A stretch of DNA of 63,533 nucleotides, filler included, from Blastocystis sp. subtype 4 (Eukaryota), in the NCBI RefSeq assembly GCF_000743755.1. It is 21 parts of 21 records of this genome, joined end to end, with 100 filler letters (N's around TTAATTAATTAA, not from the genome) between each part and the next. Parts side by side here need not be neighbours in the genome. Positions count along the whole stretch, not along the records: positions 25,500 to 28,350 come from NW_014568919.1; 20 more parts are not named here. The stretch is one strand, 5' to 3'. The position numbers and the translations under genes are program-made. This document shows positions 2,998 through 63,533 of the stretch, one piece after another. The stretch's first letter is position 1; each line of letters begins with the position of its first letter. Below the pieces are notes generated by a model. It was not told where the DNA came from. It did no database searches and worked only from the letters and a program-made list of their open reading frames with translations.

Positions 2998-4952
2998 TCT
3001 GTTAATGAAAGAACTATCGATTTCAATTCTTTCATTTCTTATCAATCTGGCATTTCTACTGATAATCCTTGTTCTATTTATCCTCATTCTATCTCTGCTT
3101 CTGGTACATTCAATTATCGTTCAGAAGCATTTGATTACAAGTGGAATTATCGTGCAGTGATATCTCCTTCTTATCTTCCTGCCTATGTGATTGGTTCATT
3201 TACGATTATCATTCCTCTTATCAATTCTATTCGATTATATACTGATGGTTATCCAGAATACTCTCCTTCTTCATTCATTGTATCAGGAAGTGATTCTGAT
3301 TCTTCTTGGACTACTCTATTCACTCAATCTGGTCAGACTTATAATGCGAATTCATGGAAACAATGGTCATTGAATTCTCCTTCACAATTCAAATCAATCA
3401 AGTTCACTGTCAATTCTGTTCAATCAACTGATTATGCCTTTATCTCTGAACTTCAATTCATGACTTGTAATCAAGATATCACTCTTCCTCATTCCTTTTA
3501 TTCATTCTTAATAGATCAACCTGTTGTTTTATCAACTGATATGGATGGAATCACAAACTGTNCAGGAAGTGATTCTGATTCTTCTTGGACTACTCTATTC
3601 ACTCAATCTGGTCAGACTTATAATGCGAATTCATGGAAACAATGGTCATTGAATTCTCCTTCACAATTCAAATCAATCAAGTTCACTGTCAATTCTGTTC
3701 AATCAACTTCTGAAGCTCGTATTACTGAACTTCAATTCATGACATGTAATCAAGATATCACTCTTTCTCTTCCTCAATCCTCCTATTCATTCTTCATTCA
3801 TCAATCCATCTCATTAACAATTGATATGAATGGAATCACAAACTGTATCATTTCTCCTCCTCTTCCTCAAGGACTCATTCTCAATCGTACTACTTGTATT
3901 ATCTCTGGAACTCTCACTTCTCTTTCTTTCTCTTCTTACAATATCACTGCCATTTCTGATTCAAACACTTTCATTCGTATTGTATCAATTGAGATCATTT
4001 CACCTCTCATCTCATATCCTCAAACCAATCTCATCATTGGTCAAGGACTATCCTTCTCTATCACTCCCAATCTCACCAAAGTCTCTACTATCTCCATTGT
4101 CTCAGGATCACTTCCTATTGGTCTATCTATCAATCCATCAACTGGAGTCATCTCTGGAATTCCATCTCAATTACTCTCTTCTCAATCAGTCACAATCGAA
4201 GCAGTGAATGGAACAGTAATTCAAACTGTTGTTCTTTCATTCACTGTTATCACTCCTATCTCTCTTTCTCATATTCTCAATCATCTTATGTTCTATCAAG
4301 AGATGATCCTGTTTCAATCATTCCTACAGTCAATGGAGATCAACTCTCATTCTCTGTTTCATCAGGATCTCTTCCTACTGGTCTATCATTCGATTCATCA
4401 ACAGGAATCATATCTGGAACGCCTCTATCTTCAATTCCTCTCACAAATATCACCATTCAAGCATCCAATCAAGTCGGATCAATTCAATTCACAATCTCCA
4501 TTCAAGTCATTATTCCTCTATCCAATCTTCATTATTCTCAATTCTCATTCACTCTCATCAAAGGACAATCATTCTCAATCTCTCCAATCATTTCAGGAGA
4601 CAATCCTCTATTCACAATCACTTCAGGAACTCTTCCTCCTGGTCTCTCTCTCAATCAATCAACTGGAATCATTTCTGGTATTCCTTCATCTACATTCCCA
4701 TCTACACTCGTCATCATTCAGGCTTCCAATGAACTTGGATTCATTCAAACTCAACTATCCTTTACTGTCAATGCTCTATCCACTCTCACTATCATTCTCA
4801 TCTCTCTTTCTATTCTTATCATTCTCATTATTCTTATCATCATCATTCTCATCATTCTATCAAAGAAGAAGAAACATACTCTACCAAAGAAGTCAATAGA
4901 AGAAGTGAAATCTGTTGAGAATCGTATTCCAAATCCATCTCATTCTGTATAA
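2998..4952 (+). CDS. Type I membrane surface protein: F5/8-like beta-sandwich, putative Ig (He_PIG-like) repeats, TM helix and basic tail; 5'-truncated, frameshift near 4265
   Basis: ISELQF motif; repeated LPxGLSINxxTGxISGxP; a second frame continues the repeats into an Ile/Leu TM segment and SKKKKH, ending TAA at 4950-4952. Confidence 0.75.
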
Positions 4953-5639
4953 TCAATCATTTGTTATTTCAACTCTTTGATTCTATTCAAACAATCACAA
5001 ACAGTGATAGAAAGGACTATTGATGATACAACTCTTTCTATCCATTAATCATCTCATCACATTATCAATCATACTATCAGAGATCTGAGGCCAAGCGTTC
5101 TCTGTGGAGTCAGCGCCTTAACTCCATTAGCTGACGCCATGAAGGAATTCAAAATGGTTAGGTAAAAGACCAAATGGTGTGAATAGAGAAATATACTCTC
5201 TGACACTAGCTGATGGGTAGCTAACAAGGTGAAGAACAACCGTATGGTGTAACCAGAATATGCCCTAATTTTGCACAGCAAATCAACTGGATTGAAACAC
5301 GGAAGATGGATATCGACGCATAAAGATTTCTGCAATATGAAGTGGAGAATCTTGATCATTCAACGAATGGATAATGCCACTATTATCAGGGTTATGCGAA
5401 AGGGTTAAATAGTAAGATTATAATACAATAACTAAATGGACTCTAGCTTTCATTCTCATTGCTTACAATCACTTTCAGTTAATCTTTCAATCAAACAGGA
5501 ATACAACCTAGTGCACCTAATGTAATCCCATTAATCAGCTTGTCTATGAGGATTATCATGGGATTTCTATACTAACTTCTCTTTTTGAGCCTAGTGTAAT
5601 CAAAGTGAATGATTCTTATTACTATCACTTAGTAGTAGT

Positions 5640-5870
5640 ATTTTGACGCATGTTACTTATTTCAAAATGCCCATACCAAAAATGGTATAATGCCCATAAA
5701 GAAGCTCGAAAAGGCAGACATTTTAACAACAAATAGGAAACATCTAACCCATTTCAAGTCAAGTCATGGGAAGAATAAGAACATAAGTTTTACATCTATT
5801 ATTATAATGGTTAACAATGACTAATAATGAATCTCAAATATTTTGTTGTTTGTTTTCTAGCAATTACATA
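5640..5870 (+). repeat. Dispersed repeat copy A
   Basis: cataaagaagctcgaaaaggcagacatttt...ttctagcaat aligns with ~24895-25073 and with the reverse complement of ~27281-27360. Confidence 0.8.
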
Positions 5871-5900
5871 AAACACACAGTATATTTTGCCTGAAAGATT

Positions 5901-6167
5901 ATGACATTAATAAACAGTATGAGATTTCCTAATGATATGATTCAACGATACATTTCAGAAATGATAAGTCACCTATTCACAAACTATCAAACAACAATTG
6001 ATGATAAACTACTCTATACAATGATTCAAAACTATGGACAACATCTTAGTCCATATCCATTCGATGGTTATTATGTTCATGTTGGTAATCAACGATATAA
6101 AGTACTACTGTCAGAAGCATCATTCTGTAATTATGGTATTTACATATTGAAAGCTCCTGAATCATGA
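5901..6167 (+). CDS. Hypothetical intronless 88-aa protein
   Basis: ATG-to-stop ORF only; no recognised motif. Confidence 0.3.
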   Translation: MTLINSMRFPNDMIQRYISEMISHLFTNYQTTIDDKLLYTMIQNYGQHLSPYPFDGYYVHVGNQRYKVLLSEASFCNYGIYILKAPES

Positions 6168-6304
6168 AATACGTGTCAAATTGAATTTGTTTTTCTTTTC
6201 GTATTATTAAATGAGCATTGTTTCACCCTCTTCCATAGATATTCAAAATGATCTGCTAGATGTTACTAGCAAGGGTATTTCTCATAACAATAAGACTATC
6301 TTTC

Positions 6305-7016
6305 TCAAATAATCGTGAAAGAACGAATTACTTCCTCCTTTTGATCTTTGATCAAACTCACAAATCGAATCTTCATATTCCTTCCAACATTCATAGTCAT
6401 TTTCCCTTCTTGTTTTGTTGTAGCTCGTATCCAATAAGTATTAACAACACCATTGTTGAAAGCATTCACAAATCCAAGAGGAGTAGTGAGATTTGGCATC
6501 TTCACATACCAACATCTTCTGAATGATGATAATATCATAGATCGAATATTGTTTCTATTATCAACAGGAAAGAATGGATTATCAATGATAATATCATAGA
6601 TCGAATATTGTTTCTATTATCAACAGGAAAGAATGGATTATCACAGGTCATTGATATAGATGGAACATTATTGTTTCGACAAGAGATGAGAAATCCATTA
6701 TGATAATTCTCTGTACATACTACAAGATGTGTTGATGCTATCACTCTATATCGATTATTGATCATATTCACTATCACATTTCCTATATCACTTAATATAT
6801 GTTCTGTACATACTACAAGATGTGTTGATGCTATCATTCTATATCGATTATTGATCATATTTGCTATTGCTATCCCAATATCACTTAATGTATGTTTTCC
6901 TGCACTTATTGTACATGGATACTCTTTCTGTATCACCATCAATCTTACATGTCAAATGAACATCATTTCCTATCCATATCTCATCTCCATAATCACATTT
7001 ACTAGATATCCATTCA
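6305..7016 (-). pseudogene. Disrupted intronless ORF, possibly virion-protein-like
   Basis: ORFs 6535-6942 and 6305-6538 fuse if one copy of a 59-bp tandem duplication (6526-6643) is removed. Contains TISAGKHTLSDIGIAIANMIN and a 31-aa internal duplication. Confidence 0.4.
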
Positions 7017-18324: not shown

Positions 18325-18402
18325 TTTTGACGTATGTCAAGTACAAATTGGAAGCAGATAAACTGTCACTAACATGGGCCTCCAACCGTGGATAGCTATA
18401 CA
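18325..18402 (+). repeat. Dispersed repeat copy B
   Basis: aacatgggcctccaaccgtggatagctatacag matches 24837-24868. Confidence 0.75.
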
Positions 18403-18490
18403 GCACAATTAGTGATCAAAAAGGAAGACTCATTTTACCATTTAGAGCCAATTTGCTGGAATTAATAACAAGAATTGTGTCATTTAGTAA

Positions 18491-18790
18491 ATGTACTCAA
18501 TAATCATTCAAGGCAAATCATTGAATGGATCATTCACGGAAAAAACCTTGCTGATTCAACAATCCATTGATTACAATCATGAAAACACTATTAACACCTT
18601 CTTCAGATGCTCTATTATCAAACCAATAACTGTATCTAATGGTAAAGGAGAATCTGTTGTGTTTGATAAAGGATGCTATACTCTACCTCACATCATTACT
18701 ATTCTCAGTCAAATACAACACACATCATTCTCAATATCCAATACTGACAGTAATGGTTGTATTCACATTGATTCCAATTGTTCAATGTGA
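18491..18790 (+). pseudogene. Penton/minor-capsid-like ORF fragment, copy 1
   Basis: Paralog of 25074-25399 (YSIIIQGK, VSNGKGESVVFxKGxYTL); family assignment is inferred from motif shape. Confidence 0.45.
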
Positions 18791-24789: not shown

Positions 24790-25073
24790 AATCTGACGCA
24801 TGATACGTATTGTTTACAACCAGACAAACCGTCGCAAACATGGGCCTCCAACCCTGGGTAGCTATACACGCTTAACCCTACCAGACAAAAACGCCACATA
24901 AACAAGCTCGAAAAGGCAGACATTTTGATAATAATTTGGAACACATATCCAACCCATTTCAACTCAAATCATGGCTAACAATAAGAACAAAAGTTTTGCA
25001 TCTATGATCATAATGGTCAACAATGGATAAGAATAAGAACAAGAATGTTGTTGTTAATTCTTTCTAGCAATAA
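24790..25073 (+). repeat. Dispersed repeat copy C
   Basis: Aligns with copies at 5640-5870, 18325-18402 and the reverse complement of 27281-27465. Confidence 0.8.
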
Positions 25074-25399
25074 ATGCATTATTCAATAATCATTCAAGGC
25101 AAACCATCAAATGGATCATTCACTGGGAGAATCCTTATCGTTTCAATAATCCATACATTACAATGATGAAGGTACTATTAACACCTACTTCTACTGCACT
25201 ATTTTCAAACATTCATCAAACCAATATTGTATCTAATGGTAAAGGAGAATCTGTAGTATTTGAGAAAGGATATTATACTCTAGCTGACATAATCGCTATG
25301 CTCAATCAAATGCAATATACTCAATACTCCATATCAAATGCAGCTTCAAGTTTTGGATGTTTCCATATACAATCATCATGTTCAGTTGATTTCTCACAA
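25074..25399 (+). pseudogene. Penton/minor-capsid-like ORF fragment, copy 2 (frameshifted, runs off contig)
   Basis: MHYSIIIQGKPSNGSFTG...NIHQTNIVSNGKGESVVFEKGYYTLADIIAMLNQM...SVDFSQ. Confidence 0.5.
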
Positions 25400-25685
25400 N
25401 NNNNNNNNNNNNNNNNNNNNNNNNNNNNNNNNNNNNNNNNNNNTTAATTAATTAANNNNNNNNNNNNNNNNNNNNNNNNNNNNNNNNNNNNNNNNNNNNT
25501 GTTATTTGGAACAAGTGGAAGTTGCCGATGAGCAGTTCTTATTACTTTACCTACATGCCGGCCAAACACTTCGCTCTGGGTTAGATGATTCATTTTAATC
25601 TACGATTAAAAACAATTGCTCAGCAATTTCAAACTTACTTAAACCATAGTTAAATAATCAATTCACAATTATTTTAAAACAAGAA

Positions 25686-27331
25686 ATGGAGTTTAACCAC
25701 AACTCAAACGAACTAAAACCTCTTACTGAAGCATATATTAGTCTTGGCTCAGCTTATTCTAACGCTTAACCACAACTCAAACGAACTAAAACCTCTTACT
25801 GAAGCATATATTAGTCTTGGCTCAGCTTATTCTAACGCTGGCAGAATAAGAAATCCTAACATGAATGAACATAGCTTAATGGCATCTGTGATTGCTGCTA
25901 CATATTATGCCAAACCTGATGAAAACATATTTCAGTTTACACCATCTCAGGCAAGCAAGAAATCATGCTACATACATCACTGGTACATGCAGAGGTCAAC
26001 AAATTCCTATACAAACATCCATTGATAACATGTCATTTGAACAGATTGAACATTATCTACACACATTTCAACCCTACAAACATCTTCCATTCATTGTCTT
26101 TCAAGTTGATAAGGCATTTCCACAGAAACATCATACTGCTATCATCTATCCTAACGACTTTGAGATGGATAAAGATCAAGAAGGCATTAGCATTATCAGG
26201 ATTGTTGATTATGAACAAAATCACTTCCATTATGTTGCTGTTACCACAAAACCATCTACTATCTTGTATAGTGGTTCAAAGGATTATGATTACAACAATC
26301 GTAAGAAACTAACCAAGAAACAAGCTGAGAAGAAGAACATAGCCAAACAAGTGTTACAAAATGGTCCACAACTCATATTTCCTCCTGAGATTGCATCCTA
26401 TCTTGTTCCTAAAGGACCCAAACCAATACAACAAAGAACTGATATTAGTATGAATGTTCGACAATCATTGATTCACTTATTTGGACTTGATCCTGCATAC
26501 TATTACTCCAATCCTGAATACATTTATGATGTGTTTCTGAAGATGAATCATGAGAAAGGAACACCAATTAGGGTATTCAAACAAGGTGAAGAAGATTATT
26601 ATCATTTCATTGAAGCAGCATGGCATGGTGGATATTCTCAGACCAATGTTCACTTTTGTATGACAGATCATCATACAAATGTCTATTATCTTGATGGCAA
26701 TTCCATGTATCCTGCATGTTGCACTAAATACAAATTTCCTGATCTTCAATACATCCAATTTGTACCAAATGATCAATTTGATCATGCTTTAAACACAGCT
26801 TACAACTGTTTTAACGATGTTCAAACTCCACAAGATGATTATGGATATCTGATTGAAGTGGAATTCACTGCTCCTGATGATCATTCACTAATTGATGATT
26901 TCCCACTAACCTTACACAAAGTGAAACAAAATGGTAGAATTGTTACTATTGCAGGTGGTAAACATGGAAAGATCATTACTATCCCACTTCATATCAATTT
27001 GATGATCAAATATGGATACACAGTCAAACCCATTCGCATACTCAAATACTCACAATCCGATATCTTTCATGGATTGTTCACGAAATTGACTCAACTTCGA
27101 AAGAATCTTAATACAGATGATGCTTTAACTGTTAAGCTAATATCCAATGCACTCACTGGCACTTTCAGAAAGAAGGATGATACACGAATTAGCAAATCTA
27201 ATAAGTATAATCCTCTTACAGTTAGTACTCGAGAAGATGGCACACACATTGTATTGCGAGAGAAGAAAGATGTGAAATATCCATCATTTGACATGAAATT
27301 GGTTGGATATGTTTCCAATTTGTTATTATAA
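25686..27331 (+). mobile_element. Polinton/Maverick-type protein-primed family B DNA polymerase, disrupted and truncated
   Basis: GLDPAYYYSNP; FIEAAWHGG; YYLDGNSMYP (motif A); GYLIEVEF; KLISNALTG (motif B); no introns; frameshifts; motif C absent. Confidence 0.85.
25694..25839 (+). repeat. 73-bp exact tandem duplication at the pPolB 5' end
   Basis: taaccacaactcaaacg...tctaacgct occurs twice, starting 25694 and 25767. Confidence 0.92.
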
Positions 27332-27465
27332 TGCCTGCCCTTTTGAGCTTCTTTATGACTATTTCCTTTTTGTTATGGGCTTTTTCATGACTCATTTGTC
27401 TGCTACTACTTCCCTGTATAGCTACCCAGGGTTGGAAATCCATGTTTGCGATGGTCTGTCTGGAC
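27281..27465 (-). repeat. Dispersed repeat copy D, truncating pPolB
   Basis: Reverse complement aligns with 24820-24975. Confidence 0.8.
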
Positions 27466-27565
27466 TATAAGAAGATGTAACATGCCTCAATTAACTAGTA
27501 CTCCTCATATAACCCTAATAGTTCCTTTATCGATTACTAACAAACACTTTAGTACTCCCCTTAAT

Positions 27566-28350
27566 TCACAGATAATCACTCTTCTCTCGAATGAATCGAT
27601 CAAGAGAGTCAGCATCTCAATCATTATCAGTTTATCAATCATACTTGAACCTGTCAATTCTTTCACATTCTCAAATGTATGATTATCCATATATATTCCA
27701 TCTTCAGTGAGTGATGGAATGTCTAAGTCAAATTCTATCATTAATCATCACTATCCAATTGCACTTTCCCTATTCTATAGAAATTGGTACCATCTCCTTG
27801 GAATAGAGATAGAGAAGGAAGATCTGATCAATCAATCATCATTATCATTCATACTCTTCATTATCAATTCATTTGATTCAGTAGTAAACATATCACCATA
27901 TATTGCCCTGAATCTAAGAATAATGGATTGAAGTTGAGTCAGATCTCATTCATCAGTCATTCAATCTTCTTACTCTCAAATACTATCAAGTGACTCCAAA
28001 AGAATGCATCAACATCAAATTGAATGGATGTAAGAGAAGGGAGATTCTTCAATTCAAATGATTCATACCAACAGAATGAATCTCTTCCAAAGTGGAATTG
28101 TTTCAATTGATCACAATTCATTATCCAACATGAGCTTCCTCTTTGAATAGCATCATCAATAGAGAAGTTCACCTTTCCAATGCTGATAGTCTCCAATGCA
28201 TTCAATCCATCAATCACAAATCGATTCACTTTATCAAAACAATGATTTCCAATCTCAATTCGTTTCAATGATATCAATGAATTGTTCAATATCAATGATG
28301 ATATATCAGGATTGAAATCATCATCAATAATCAGAGATTCAATACAACTA
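27566..28350 (-). CDS. MORN-LRR family C-terminal part, 5'-truncated
   Basis: LKRIEIGNHCF, ELKNLPSL and the same intron pattern as 474-2422; TGTTTGTT at 27546-27539. Confidence 0.8.
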
Positions 28351-40932: not shown

Positions 40933-41929
40933 TCATATGAAACAATTAGTGATGAAGAAATAAATGGATGAGAATTAATGAAATGATAACAAATTGATGT
41001 GATTGGGACTGAGTGAGAAAGTGATTAACATGAATTGTGAGATATGAATAGAATTGATATGATACGAGAGCGTAGATATAAATGGAAATAAGAAATGAAT
41101 GATATGAGTAATGAATGATGAGAATGATATCCCCGTGATTGTATTCAGTAATGAGATCGAAGAATGAAGAAATGTTATTAGCCTCGTTAGATAGTTGTAA
41201 TGATCACAAAATCGATCATCTGAGCATTTTGCAACACTTGAAGCCTTTGAAAAAGAGTAGTTCACTTTCTTTGTCAAAGAGATTCATATTCTTATGTTCT
41301 TGGTCCTAATAGATCGAAAATGATTCAATACAACTGATCTGCTGAACAGTATGCCAAAAGAGGGTTAATCACAAGGAAAGGAGTTCAGTGATTCATTTCT
41401 GGATTCAACCGGTTCTAAAGAGAAGGAAATGAGGTATTACTATACTCCTCTAATACTATTAGGCTGTTCTTGCTGAATGCATGAATGATTGGATGAACAG
41501 AACCACTTAGTTGACAGTTCCATTTCGATCTTTTTTGTTGTATCAGCATATAAGGAGAATATCGAAATAAGATGGGAAACGAGAAATGGAGATTTGACCA
41601 AGTTGTGCCATCGAGTTGAGTTCAAGATATCTAAAGAAGGTAGAACGCTTGCATGTCGTTCTCAACTTCCATTACGATTAGTAGATAATGAATGGGGAAT
41701 GTGATCTAGGCATGGGAAGTAACCATTCACAAGGCACAGGGAATGACACTTGAGTACTTAACGATCGATATATCAGATGTGTTTGTGTATGGAAGAAGGT
41801 GAAAGAATGCTTATTAGTAATAGTGAACAAAACGAAACACATATTTGAACTCAGATAGGTTTGAAGATATCAACACCATTCATTAATCTATTCTTTCCAT
41901 ATTTCATTTTACATAATTCCTTTGTCGTA

Positions 41930-42817
41930 TTAATCGATCAAGAGTATTAGCATCTCAATCATTAACAACCAATTAATCATACTTGAACTATGCAATTCTT
42001 GAACATTATAGAATGAGTTCCATTCGCTAATCTGTATTCCATCTTCAATGAGTGATGGAATGTCTAATTCATATTCAATTATCAATCATCACTCTCTAAT
42101 ATCACTTTCTCTCTCCATTTGAAATTGGAACCAACTCCTTTGAATGTAGACAGAGAAGGAAGATCTGATCAATCAATCATCATTATCAGTATTACTCCTC
42201 ATTATCAGTTCATTCGATTCAATCATATTATAATCACCACAAAGAGCCTGAAACTCAAGAATGATGGATTGAAGTTGATTCAGATCTCATTCATCATTCA
42301 TTCAATCATTCATACTCTCAAATACTACTGAGTTACAAATATGGAATCCATCACTCTGCAGTTGAATGGATATGAGAGAAGGAAGATTCTTACATTCAAA
42401 TGATTCATAGTAATAGAATGAACCCTCTCCAATATTGATTTGTTTCAATTGATCACAATTCATTATTACACATTTGCCTCCTCGATTATTCTCATTTTGT
42501 TTCAGGCTATTCTTTCCAATGATGATAGTCTCCAATTCATTCAATCNCAAATCGATTCACTTTCATCAAACAACGATTTCCTATCTCAATTCGTTTCAAT
42601 GATATCAATGAATAGTTCAGTATCAATGATGATATATCAGGATTGAAATCATCATCAATAATCAGAGATTCAATACAACTAGTAACAATCAATTCACAAT
42701 CATCAATCCATTTCATTTTCATATCATCATTAACATCAATAATAACATCATCTTTGAATAGTCCTTCATATTCAATCATTCCATTTCGATCATACAATAA
42801 TCCATATCCATTCTTCA
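41930..42817 (-). CDS. MORN-LRR family C-terminal part, 5'-truncated, internal N
   Basis: YEGLFKDD; LKRIEIGNRC; ECKNLPSL; VFESMND intron signature. Confidence 0.75.
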
Positions 42818-59243: not shown

Positions 59244-60804
59244 ATGAGTAATATCATTGTTGCAAATTGTTGTTCATCTCTTGAATTCCTTGGTGATTAT
59301 ATGATAAAGAGTGTTGAAGTGAAGAATGATGATGAATTGACTAAAGAAAAGATAATGAGATTAATGATAGATAATGAAGAGTATGAGTTGAGAGTATCAA
59401 TGAAAGAAGGAAAAAATGAAGGAATTGGAGTGATTGTGAGGAAGAATGGAACACTGTTTATGAGAATGACATTTGTGAATGATGAATGTGAAGGAGAAGT
59501 GATAAAGAAGAATAAGTATGGAAATACAGTGTTGAAAGGAAGAGTATCAAAAGGAAAGGAAGTTGGAATATGGATAGAATATGATGATGGTGGAAATGAG
59601 ATATGGAGAGGATTCTATCGAAATGGAAAGCGATATTTGGTATTAAAGGAACGAGAAGGAATGAAAGGATTCTATTCAGAGATGAGTGTGAATGGAGAAT
59701 TGTTGAATGTAAGTGAATATGATGATGAATGGATGAAGAATGGTAAGTGTTTTGAGTGTGAAGGAGGAAGAATGGTTAGAGAATGTGAATACAAGAATGG
59801 AGTAATGATGAGAGTATTGAGAGAATGGAAAGGAGAAGTAATGATTGAATATGATGTGAATGGAATGAGAGTATATGAAGGAGGATTTGAAGGAGATATG
59901 ATGAAAGGATTTGTTCGAGAAGGAGAAGGAACTGAATATGGAATTAATGGAAAGAGTGCATTGTATGTAGGTGGATGGAAGAATGGAAAGAGAGAAGGAT
60001 ATGGAAGTGAATTCAAAGGTTTGAATCCAGTTTATATTGGAGAATGGAAGAATGGAATGAAACATGGAATAGGAAAAGAGTTGAATGAAAAGGAAGTGGT
60101 AAGAAAAGGAAGATGGATCAAAGATGAGTATGGTAATATGAAACGATTTGAAGATGGATATGGAAGTGATTTGAGTGTATTTGATATTGATTGTTTGAAA
60201 GAAATTGAGAGACTTGAGATTGGAAATCATTGTTTTAAGAAATTGAATCGATTTGTGATTGATGGATTGAATGAATTGAAGAGTGTAATTATTGGAAAGA
60301 ATAGCTTTTCTCTCAGTAATGCTACTAGAAAAGGAAACAAGTGCTTGATAATGAATTGTAATGAATTGAGTGAAATCCACATTGGGGAAAAGTCATTCTT
60401 TGATTATGAATCATTTGAATTGAAGAATCTTCCTTCTCTCATATCCATTCAACTGGATGATGCAGTATTATTTAGGTGTCATTCGATAGTATTTGAGAGT
60501 ATGAAAGATTGAATGAATGATGAATGAGATCTGACTCAACTTCAGTCCATAACTCTTGGATATGGGGCTTTATTCAGTGACAATAATACTAAAGAAACGA
60601 ATGAATTGATAATGAAGAGTATGTATGATAATGATGATTGATTGATAAGATCTCCCTTCACTGTCTCTAATCAACGGAGATAGTTACAATCTCTTTTGTA
60701 TAGGCAAAGTGATATTGGAGAGTGACGATTGATGGTTGTATTTGAATTAGACATTCCATCACTCACTGAACAAGGAATTAAGAATAATTGTAGTTCATTA
60801 TATA
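59244..60804 (+). CDS. MORN+LRR-like family paralog, 3'-truncated
   Basis: Highly similar to 474-2422 but one ~100-aa MORN block shorter; same intron positions. Confidence 0.85.
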
Positions 60805-60904: not shown

Positions 60905-63533
60905 CATCTCAATCAGTAACTATCGAAGCATTCAATGAAGTAAGTAATCAATTTCACACTATCACATTCACCATTCTCACTCCTATCTCTTCATTCTCTT
61001 ATCCTCAATCATCTTATGTTCTATCAAAGAACAATTCATTCTCTATCATTCCCACTGTTGATGGAGATGAACTATCATTCTCGATTACATCAGGATCTCT
61101 TCCTATTGGTCTATCTCTCAATTCATCTACTGGAATCATCTCAGGAATTCCTTCTCAGGCTATGTCATCTCAATCAGTAACCATCAATGCTCTCAATCAA
61201 GTGAGTGATCAATCATTCTCTCTTTCATTTACTGTTATCACTCCCATCTCTTCATTCAACTATTCTCAATCTTCATTTGCTCTTACAAAAGATGAATCAT
61301 TCTCTATCGTTCCTACCTCTATCATTTCAGGATCTCTTCCTATTGGTTTATCTCTCAATTCAACAACAGGAATGATATATGGAATTTCTTCTCAATTTGT
61401 GTCATCTCAATCAGTCACAATCGAAGCATTCAATGAAGTGAGTAATCAATTTAACACTATCACATTCACCATTCTCACTCCTATCACTTCATTCTCTTAT
61501 CTTCAATCATCTTATGTTCTGCCAATTAATGGTTCGTTTTCTGTTGCTCCGACTGTTGATGGAGATCAACTATCATTCTCTATCATTTCAGGATCTCTTC
61601 CTATTGGTCAACAGGAATCATCTCAGGAATTCCTTCTCAGACTGTGTCATCTCAATTGATCACAATCAAAGCATTCAATGAAGTGAGTGATCAATCATTC
61701 TCTCTTTCATTCACTGTTATCACTCCCATTTCTTCATTCTCATATCCTCTGTCTTCATATGTTCTATCAAAGAACAGTCCATTCTCTGTTTCTCCTTCTG
61801 TTGATGGAGATGAACTATCATTCTCTATCATTTCAGGATCTCTTCCTATTGGTGGTTTATCTCTCAATTCAACAACAGGAATGATATATGGAATTCCTTC
61901 TCAATTTGTGTCATCTCAATCAGTCACAATCGAAGCATTCAATGAAGTGAGTAATCAATCATTCTCTCTTTCATTTACTGTTATCACTCCTATCACTTCA
62001 TTCTCTTATCTTCAATCATCTTATGTTCTGCCAATTAATGGTTCGTTTTCTGTTGCTCCGACTGTTGATGGAGATGAATTATCATTCTCTATCATTTCAG
62101 GATCTCTTCCTATTGGTCTATCTCTCAATTCAACAACAGGAATCATCTCTGGATCTCCTTCTCAATTACTCTCTTCTCCTCTTCTCAATTGATCACAATC
62201 AAAGCTTCAAATCAAGTGAGTGATCAATCATTCTCTCTTTCATTTACTATTCTCACTCCTATCTCTTCATTCTCATATCCTTTATCTTCATATGTTCTAT
62301 CAAAGAACAATTCATTCTCTATCATTCCTACAATCAATGGAGATCAACTATCATTCTCTATCATTTCAGGATCTCTTCCTATCTCTCAATTCAACAACAG
62401 GAATGATATATGGAATTCCTTCTCAATTTGTGTCATCTCAATCAGTAACAATCGAAGCATTCAATGAAGTAAGTAATCAATTTAACACTATCACATTCAC
62501 CATTCTCACTCCCATCTCTTCATTCTCTTATCTTCAATCATCTTATGTTCTATCAAGAGATGATCCTGTTTCAATCATTCCTACAGTCAATGGAGATGAA
62601 CTATCATTCTCGATTACATCAGGATCACTACCAATAGGTCTATCTCTCAATTCATCTACTGGAATCATCTCAGGAATTCCTTCTCAGGCTATGTCATCTC
62701 AATCAGTAACCATCAATGCTCTCAATCAAGTGAGTAATCAATCATTCTCTCTTTCATTTACTGTTCTCACTCCCATCTCTTCATTCAACTATTCTCAATC
62801 TTCATTTGCTCTTACAAAAGATGAATCATTCTCTATCATTCCTATTGTCAATGGAGATGAATTATCATTCTCTATCATTTCAGGATCTCTTCCTATTGGT
62901 TTATCTCTCAATTCAACAACAGGAATGATATATGGAATTCCTTCTCAATCCATCATATCTCAATCAGTAACAATCGAAGCATTCAATGAAGTGAGTGATC
63001 AATCATCAATCATTCTCTCTTTCATTCACTGTTATCACTCCTATCTCTTCATTCTCATATCCTTTATCTTCATATGTTCTATCAAAGAACAATTCATTCT
63101 CTATCATTCCTATTGTCAATGGAGATCTCATATCCTTTATCTTCATATGTTCTATCAAAGAACAATTCATTCTCTATCATTCCTATTGTCAATGGAGATC
63201 AATTATCATTCTCTATCATTTCAGGATCTCTTCCTATTGGTCTATCTCTCAATTCAACAACAGGAATGATATATGGAATTCCTTCTCAATTTGTGTCATC
63301 TCGCATTCAATGAAGTGAGTGATCAATCATTCTCTCTTTCATTTACTATTCTCACTCCTATCTCTTCATTCAACTATTCTCAATCTTCATTTGCTCTTAC
63401 AAAAGATGAATCATTCTCTATCGTTCCTACAGTGGATGGAGATCAACTATCATTCTCTATCATTTCAGGATCTCTTCCTATTGGTTTATCTCTCAATTCA
63501 ACAACAGGAATGATATATGGAATTTCTTCTCAA
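60905..63533 (+). repeat. Tandem array of ~250-bp He_PIG-like Ig repeats (surface protein gene), many frameshifts
   Basis: About 10 units of TPISSFSY...GDxLSFSIISGSLPIGLSLNSTTGxIxG. Confidence 0.85.

Follow-up and report, generated by a model that had tools for sequence, protein, structure and literature searches.

We found that the genome assembly of Blastocystis sp. subtype 4 (GCF_000743755.1) carries a broken copy of the gene for an unusually short family B DNA polymerase of the protein-primed kind (pPolB). The entire family to which it belongs has the same short span ahead of the polymerase palm, the palm fold is retained, and the intact genes are linked to an integrase, an A32 ATPase and a capsid-like gene. 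The reading we favour, at a probability of roughly 80%, is that this copy is the relic of the polymerase of a multi-copy Polinton-type (MELD) provirus, of which the intact enzyme is likely active and error-prone, with no detectable exonuclease.

The window copy is a truncated relic

The window, by which we mean the whole stretch of 63,533 nucleotides that was analysed, is a chain of pieces mostly of 3-4 kb with N-linkers between them. The relic sits on the piece at 25500-28350, and since this piece is flanked by N-linkers, genes across the N runs are unlinked to it. The polymerase relic (~1.8 kb) bears a 73-bp duplication, a 5-bp frameshift and a repeat that cuts it ahead of motif C, with the compact pPolB sequence at 25686..27284 on the plus strand, corresponding to about residues 1-510 of a 644-651-aa protein. 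It retains the vOTU-like region, a short linker, motif A, TPR1, motif B and TPR2 and is without motif C and the thumb, and because the latter two are gone the window copy is dead. Its DNA is 98.5-99.3% identical to the gene found in eight metagenome loci (L001-L008), and it is 98-99% identical to the intact 644-651-aa genes of a 497-member cluster.

We recovered all seven pPolB motifs of the original prediction on the plus strand where it had placed them, namely RNPNMNEHSLMASVIAA at 25849, HFHYVAV at 26222, FGLDPAYYYSNP at 26480, FIEAAWHGG at 26606, YYLDGNSMYP at 26684, GYLIEVEF at 26843 and KLISNALTG at 27134. The single reading frame that it had assumed does not hold, as three different frames hold the ATG (25686), the first motif and the remainder of the gene, owing to the 73-bp duplication and a 5-bp deletion after 25972, both of which it had missed; the longest frame (25892-27331) encodes 479 aa. 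The duplication (25693..25839, plus strand) is a perfect, frame-breaking tandem one (TRF, 100% match). It is skipped by the contigs of two of four public runs and is missing in L001, L003 and L007, and it may have been introduced by the assembly. In the window, three stretches (6526-6643, 25693-25839 and 63053-63200) are each a perfect tandem duplication in two copies, with units of 59-73 bp, a pattern that suggests an assembly artefact of this genome. The 5-bp deletion (25972..25973, plus strand) is private to the window copy, being absent from L001, L003 and L007 and from contigs of all four public runs.

Homology to the intact genes stops at 27284, and a dispersed repeat without assigned strand (27281..27491), which begins at ~27281, replaces the 3' end of the gene. 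Copies of this repeat lie at 5664-5769, 18355-18403 and 24794-24977 of the window and at 10278-10457 of L003. The predicted loss of motif C at a repeat near 27281 is borne out, but the lost motif was not DTDS, since the intact copies have TKTDS. The polymerase-repeat junction was seen again in L007 and in protein P0011, so that the truncation is probably a real allele; in two of the four public runs, contigs continue past 27284 into the intact gene. The repeat family as a whole (window 24794-25399 and 18355-18790, both plus strand, and 5664-5769; L003 10063-10457, minus strand) extends into a decayed ORF with FEKGYYTLADII, the copies at 25058 and 18632 being 64% identical. We take FEKGYYTLADII to resemble the minor-capsid (penton) motif of Polinton-like viruses, and the family may be a second virus-derived one; Pfam gave no support for a penton-type identity of this ORF.

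Both flanks of the relic lie on the same assembled piece. On the left, the 5' part of an element ORF (110 aa, no assigned function) occupies 25500..25599 on the minus strand, divergent from the polymerase gene and cut by the piece edge; over 33 aa it is 100% identical to the same ORF in L002 and L003, and it is 97% identical to that in L006. On the right, at 27587..28350 on the minus strand, lies a fragment of a host multi-copy gene family, with copies 75-80% identical at 41925-42681, 60204-60778 and 1726-2401 of the window and a high summed depth in public runs.

The short span is shared by the whole family

We measured 86 aa from the vOTU His strand to the LDP motif (26222..26515, plus strand), close to the predicted ~88 aa, a stretch that replaces the zinc-binding region and the exonuclease domain. 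A homologue search returned P0001 (651 aa, 99% identical), P0002 (631 aa, 83%) and P0003 (630 aa, 69%), representing clusters of 497, 17 and 2 sequences, respectively. Among 32 members examined, the span is 86 aa in all 30 that have both motifs, including those 69-83% identical, which answers whether other copies share it. Upon searching 1.84 billion representatives we obtained 60 matches, one of which, P0033, is a compact but more remote protein (564 aa, 26-28% identical) in whose cluster the span measures 96 aa in three of three members; the other matches were mostly Polinton-type polymerases of 800-1,430 aa or fragments. A family profile search added no further members, and neither the searches of viral contigs with polymerase, ATPase, P0033, capsid and integrase queries nor those of genome contigs gave a match. 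P0033, P0092 and P0093 form a compact pPolB lineage of 564-574 aa, with one contig of 13,291 bases, and retain, past the OTU-like strand, a small remnant of the form CxxC..CxH; their motif C is TFTDS and their motif B canonical (KRMMNSLYG in P0033).

For comparison we used 16 full pPolBs that include the OTU region and measured from the OTU match to the palm match. This distance is 373-610 aa in 14 of the 16 references, in line with the several hundred residues that had been stated as normal, and 217 and 293 aa in the other two, versus 78-79 aa in the compact proteins. Furthermore, profiles of ExoI-II and of the ExoIII region were cut from 15 references; on three control pPolBs they score 110-205 and 96-118 bits, respectively, whereas 412 targets, the compact proteins together with the six-frame ORFs from five element loci, yield no match below E 0.2. 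On the compact proteins their scores are at chance level (reached by 92-289 of 300 shuffles), in agreement with the predicted lack of an ExoI/II motif, and the OTU profile is above it (reached by 1, 0 and 0 of 300). As the Exo profiles are silent and the short span is family-wide, we conclude that the exonuclease is missing from the entire compact family; nor did the DNA examined yield a separate gene for it.

These results bear on whether the short form arose by an in-frame exonuclease deletion in one dead copy that was then passively duplicated. Such decay would fit the broken window copy and the many copies 98-99% identical, but the 86-aa span stands in open full-length frames that are 69-83% identical, and the 96-aa span belongs to a lineage of 26-28% identity, grouped with the family in the quick tree (SH-aLRT 99). 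With the short span common to intact, diverged full-length relatives, simple decay is refuted in practice and retains hardly any probability. The original prediction had left a choice between an in-frame deletion and a naturally compact polymerase; the former is untenable for the window copy because all intact relatives are equally short, and the latter stands, the polymerase being naturally compact and not decayed. Open full-length frames are maintained across the lineages 69-83% identical. Seven near-identical loci vary at 17 codons, 8 of them non-synonymously, numbers too small to demonstrate selection. The tree (quick method, palm only, 38 rows after two of 39 candidates were dropped for short coverage and phi29 was added) carries long-branch warnings and contains no mavirus, adenovirus or group 1 reference, and it shows only that the compact proteins, on a very long branch, group together.

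Polymerase fold, catalytic motifs and N-terminus

We found that the Pfam profile DNA_pol_B_2 (PF03175) matches the 479-aa frame only along the palm part of the profile, positions 186-403 (E=1.3e-13; 51 bits, cut-off 25.8). Unlike this truncated frame, full-length P0001-P0003 have no Pfam polymerase match, which we attribute to filter sensitivity. Residues 213-596 of P0001 align with Polinton-type palms in hhalign (probability 99.9, E=7e-33). The window protein had 0 phmmer matches in the PDB, and the family profile reached phi29 there at E=0.0012. A single-sequence fold of the polymerase gave a pLDDT of 33. The alignment-based model is confident over about residues 230-615, with the TPR2 stretch itself at low confidence, and is unreliable over the N-terminal 228 residues (pLDDT < 50). 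It superimposes on phi29 polymerase with Z 22.5 and rmsd 3.8 over 310 aligned residues, the next family having Z 12.1, and phi29 takes ranks 1-9 in Foldseek against the PDB (E 1e-14). The best matches in BFVD are bidnavirus, MELD-virus and adintovirus polymerases at 14-20% identity. The modelled fold is phi29-like and not of the RNA-primed type, and the assignment to the Polinton/alpha-adintovirus-type pPolBs, as originally proposed, is upheld by Pfam, hhalign, Foldseek and BFVD.

In the relic, the stretch from motif A (YLDGNSMYP) to motif B (KLISNALTG) occupies 26684..27160 on the plus strand, and intact copies carry motifs A and B and the variant motif C TKTDS. In a 50-protein alignment D314 and Y319 of motif A are invariant, and K461, N465 and G469 of motif B are at least 90% conserved. 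Motif C reads KPDS in one of the 27 family proteins that have it, in which the Asp is still present; piPolB is reported to be active with only the second Asp of this motif (PMC5695915). In motif B of the compact family, Thr replaces the Tyr or Phe of relatives, which is the divergence (NALTG) that had been predicted. The KxY motif is apparently not conserved in the family, and the C-terminal region is short, the polymerase ending ~100 aa past motif C.

One could read these changes as the marks of a pseudo-polymerase with a non-catalytic role (DNA-end binding, a terminal-protein-like function or packaging), the element being copied by enzymes of the host or of a helper virus. The combined losses of the exonuclease, the vOTU Cys, the first motif C Asp, the motif B aromatic residue and apparently KxY, together with the very long branch, speak for it, but the Asp and Tyr of motif A, the Lys, Asn and Gly of motif B and the essential motif C Asp are retained, also in the P0033 lineage, and we consider this reading improbable.

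At the N-terminus, a vOTU helix-1-like motif (25849..25899, plus strand) reads N[MK][ND]EHSLM in 29 of 29 family proteins containing the region. Only ~30 residues precede this helix, so the terminal protein is not fused to the polymerase; the TP-region profile had no match, and no terminal-protein gene was identified. The position of the CF-motif catalytic Cys of all 16 reference pPolBs corresponds to a Ser (25873-25875), in a register inferred from motif order and not from structure, and the vOTU His is kept in the compact family. As residues 1-228 are modelled with such low confidence, the basis of both the vOTU call and the Cys-to-Ser register is motif order together with a weak profile score. 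A whole-length MAFFT alignment was rejected for the N-terminus, having forced the exonuclease onto the OTU region.

The element that carries the intact copies

Together L002 and L006 give ~12 kb of the element, with the gene order ATPase, rve integrase, a 157-aa ORF, a KilA-N protein (E=2e-8), small ORFs, a 400-aa protein on the minus strand, two variable ORFs, the 110-aa ORF and the polymerase. The rve integrase (PF00665, E=1e-9, above cut-off) is in L006 and not on the window piece. The ATPase scores 0.96-0.97 to Pox_A32 clusters in Atlas and has Walker A, Walker B and GRH..Q motifs; Pfam did not call Pox_A32 on it. The 400-aa protein scores 0.97 in Atlas to viral clusters, in some of which 13-17% of the members carry Capsid_N/Capsid_NCLDV, and has no Pfam, PHROG or PDB sequence match; we predict it to be a double-jelly-roll capsid protein. 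Among the ORFs of this partial element of ~12 kb, no minor capsid protein and no Ulp1-like maturation protease were identified, and Pfam, NCBIfam and PHROG left most accessory ORFs unnamed.

In L003, L004 and L005 we observe, directly after the gene, a 300-bp unit that is rich in GTAGTA and has CT at its end; the sequences differ beyond this unit, which may be the right end of the element. Related units lie between genes too, and the DNA examined has no matching left end. Of the features proposed as a check on intact copies, the integrase and ATPase genes are there, as is a capsid-like gene, and no terminal inverted repeats emerged from the loci examined. Fold-back units of ~300 bp rich in GTAGTA/GGAGTA lie at L003 3640-3950, L006 1470-1800, L004 4420-5043 and near L002 5729. 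They come after convergent gene ends and a short GTTGCAG..GCAAC palindrome, their presence varies between copies, and they could be termini or small mobile units. Upstream of the polymerase, a coiled-coil ORF (L001 36-1157, L002 8488-9534, L003 149-1246, L006 8424-9533) is a mosaic whose N- and C-terminal halves are exchanged among copies, which suggests recombination between elements; it is a candidate terminal protein or fibre. In L008, positions 105-974 fuse the end of this ORF to a start that we take to be bacterial-type anaerobic ribonucleotide-reductase-like, and L008 is likely a chimeric metagenome contig. Adjoining the putative right end of the intact copy in L003, a non-LTR retrotransposon-like ORF (4192-6327, minus strand) has an endonuclease domain (PF03372, E=2.4e-10).

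Clustering at 90% places the integrase, the ATPase, the capsid-like protein and the small proteins together with hypothetical proteins from Blastocystis sp. BT1, a subtype 4 strain (PMC10690189), with matches in at least five locus-tag neighbourhoods and longest contigs of 0.47-1.18 Mb. The neighbouring element genes thus occupy multiple chromosomal loci in strain BT1. No BT1-named polymerase was among 40 of the 497 cluster members. Mouse and rat gut runs contain 83-93% of the words of the polymerase gene, and one RNA-labelled run has short contigs over several element genes, which is not proof of transcription. We weighed these data against a free virus or a contaminant misassembled with Blastocystis sequence. 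The assembly is in short pieces with N-linkers, and no public-run contig spans from the polymerase to the host family at 27587 and beyond, as such an origin would have it; against it, the recurrent polymerase-repeat junction, the continuity in L003 of the intact gene with a non-LTR retroelement and with a host gene, and the annotation of element genes in the BT1 long-read genome make it highly unlikely. The predicted integrated virus of a gut protist is supported by this clustering with BT1 and by the window piece running into the host family.

A mavirus-like element would have an active exonuclease-less polymerase and a helicase (S3H or S1H) in its unseen part, a sub-case of our favoured explanation that would agree with the literature in pairing the loss of the exonuclease with the gain of a helicase. 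A helicase accompanies each exonuclease loss described by Krupovic 2024 (PMC11161782). There is also room for one, as a further 2,650 bases on the L006 contig and 1,277 on the L002 contig lie beyond the examined part, contigs of up to 23-25 kb bear element genes, and the BT1 locus tags leave space for unseen genes between the ATPase and the integrase. On the other hand, none was found in the ~12 kb examined, the sole Walker A in five loci (149 ORFs of 60 aa or more) is that of the A32-type ATPase, and no helicase family reaches its cut-off in 14 proteins, the DEAD score (24.3 versus 26) falling on that same ATPase. We put the chances of a helicase in the unseen element DNA at about even and those of the mavirus-like reading as a whole just short of that. 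More tentatively, a lineage of gut-protist Polinton-like viruses could have independently stripped a group 2 Polinton polymerase to ~560-650 aa, with the terminal protein, the exonuclease and one motif C Asp gone and the vOTU dead, and could replicate with it without a helicase of their own, with copies that are possibly mobile, a reading that we hold rather doubtful.

Proposed replication and implications

Given that the intact copies are equally short and without a proofreading domain, the virus likely copies its DNA with a stripped-down enzyme. By analogy with Polinton biology, the element would integrate through its rve integrase, and the excised linear DNA would be copied from its ends by the compact pPolB in a protein-primed manner without proofreading, the priming terminal protein being no longer fused and presumably encoded separately. 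The vOTU protease, with nothing left to cleave, has likely exchanged its catalytic Cys for Ser while retaining a structural function, as it does in adenovirids. Catalysis would depend on D314 of motif A and the second Asp of TKTDS in motif C, and the A32-type ATPase would package genomes into double-jelly-roll capsids.

The Blastocystis MELD virus (2021) and the exonuclease-less pPolBs of mavirus and Tlr1 are known already; a literature search, whose coverage left out most subscription journals, returned no description of an exonuclease-less Blastocystis polymerase. Should the element turn out to encode no helicase, the proposed rule of exonuclease loss with helicase gain would have its first exception. 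The element allows the idea of exonuclease-helicase compensation to be tested directly. Judged from its sequence, the compact pPolB may be a natural minimal protein-primed polymerase. In the BT1 annotation the element genes bear no label other than hypothetical. Intact copies, nearly identical to one another, may have kept their mobility in Blastocystis ST4, and they raise the question of whether this subtype makes virus particles.

Comparison with known systems

The Blastocystis MELD virus (Starrett et al. 2021, PMC8502044) comes from the same host genus and, like the element described here, has an alpha-adintovirus-like PolB, an integrase, divergent virion proteins and a long branch. The word exonuclease has 0 occurrences in the main text of that paper, and a 2022 preprint lists 'Blastocystis MELD virus 3996' among 'Exo I-Motif C' fragments (10.1101/2022.05.25.493380). 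BFVD holds no high-identity MELD PolB, the best MELD match being 17%. Because of that listing and this low identity, MELD virus 3996 may be either the present element or a distinct one.

Group 2 Polinton and alpha-adintovirus pPolBs share with the compact protein, in register, LDPxxYY, GG, motif A, GY and motifs B and C, and group 2 Polintons share with the element the N-terminal OTU-like region, the integrase, the ATPase and the MCP (here the predicted capsid-like protein). The compact protein differs in its length (~640 versus 1,050-1,430 aa), in having KTDS and not DTDS, and in being without their TP region, zinc-binding region and ExoI-III. In a survey of ~22,000 integrase-linked pPolBs, exonuclease motifs are described as conserved in all taxon groups (10.1101/2023.08.22.554363). 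Adenovirid pPolBs resemble the compact family in their detached terminal protein and inactivated vOTU, the inactivation being tied by Krupovic et al. to the detachment (PMC11161782), but they retain the exonuclease, and adenovirids have no integrase, unlike the Blastocystis element.

Exonuclease loss is known in mavirus and in the Tlr1/transpoviron fusions, each with a helicase (PMC11161782; PMC12721341). The Tlr1/transpoviron pPolB-S1H fusions likewise have a palm without exonuclease; they carry a TP and a fused C-terminal SF1 helicase, whereas the compact protein stops ~100 aa after motif C. In the supplements covered of a 2026 survey of mavirus relatives (PMC13215967) and of PMC10120064, Blastocystis appears only in lists of screened genomes. 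Mavirus pPolB, like the compact family, has lost most of its exonuclease, is accompanied by an rve integrase and is endogenous in a stramenopile protist (PMC11161782). Mavirus keeps the TP, an active vOTU and the S3H helicase, whereas the compact protein has no fused TP and a Ser at the inferred Cys position; its motifs are of Polinton group 2 type, unlike those of mavirus, whose PolB ranks 41st in the BFVD search. Overall, the compact enzyme would act like a mavirus-type proofreading-less replicase built on group 2 Polinton motifs.
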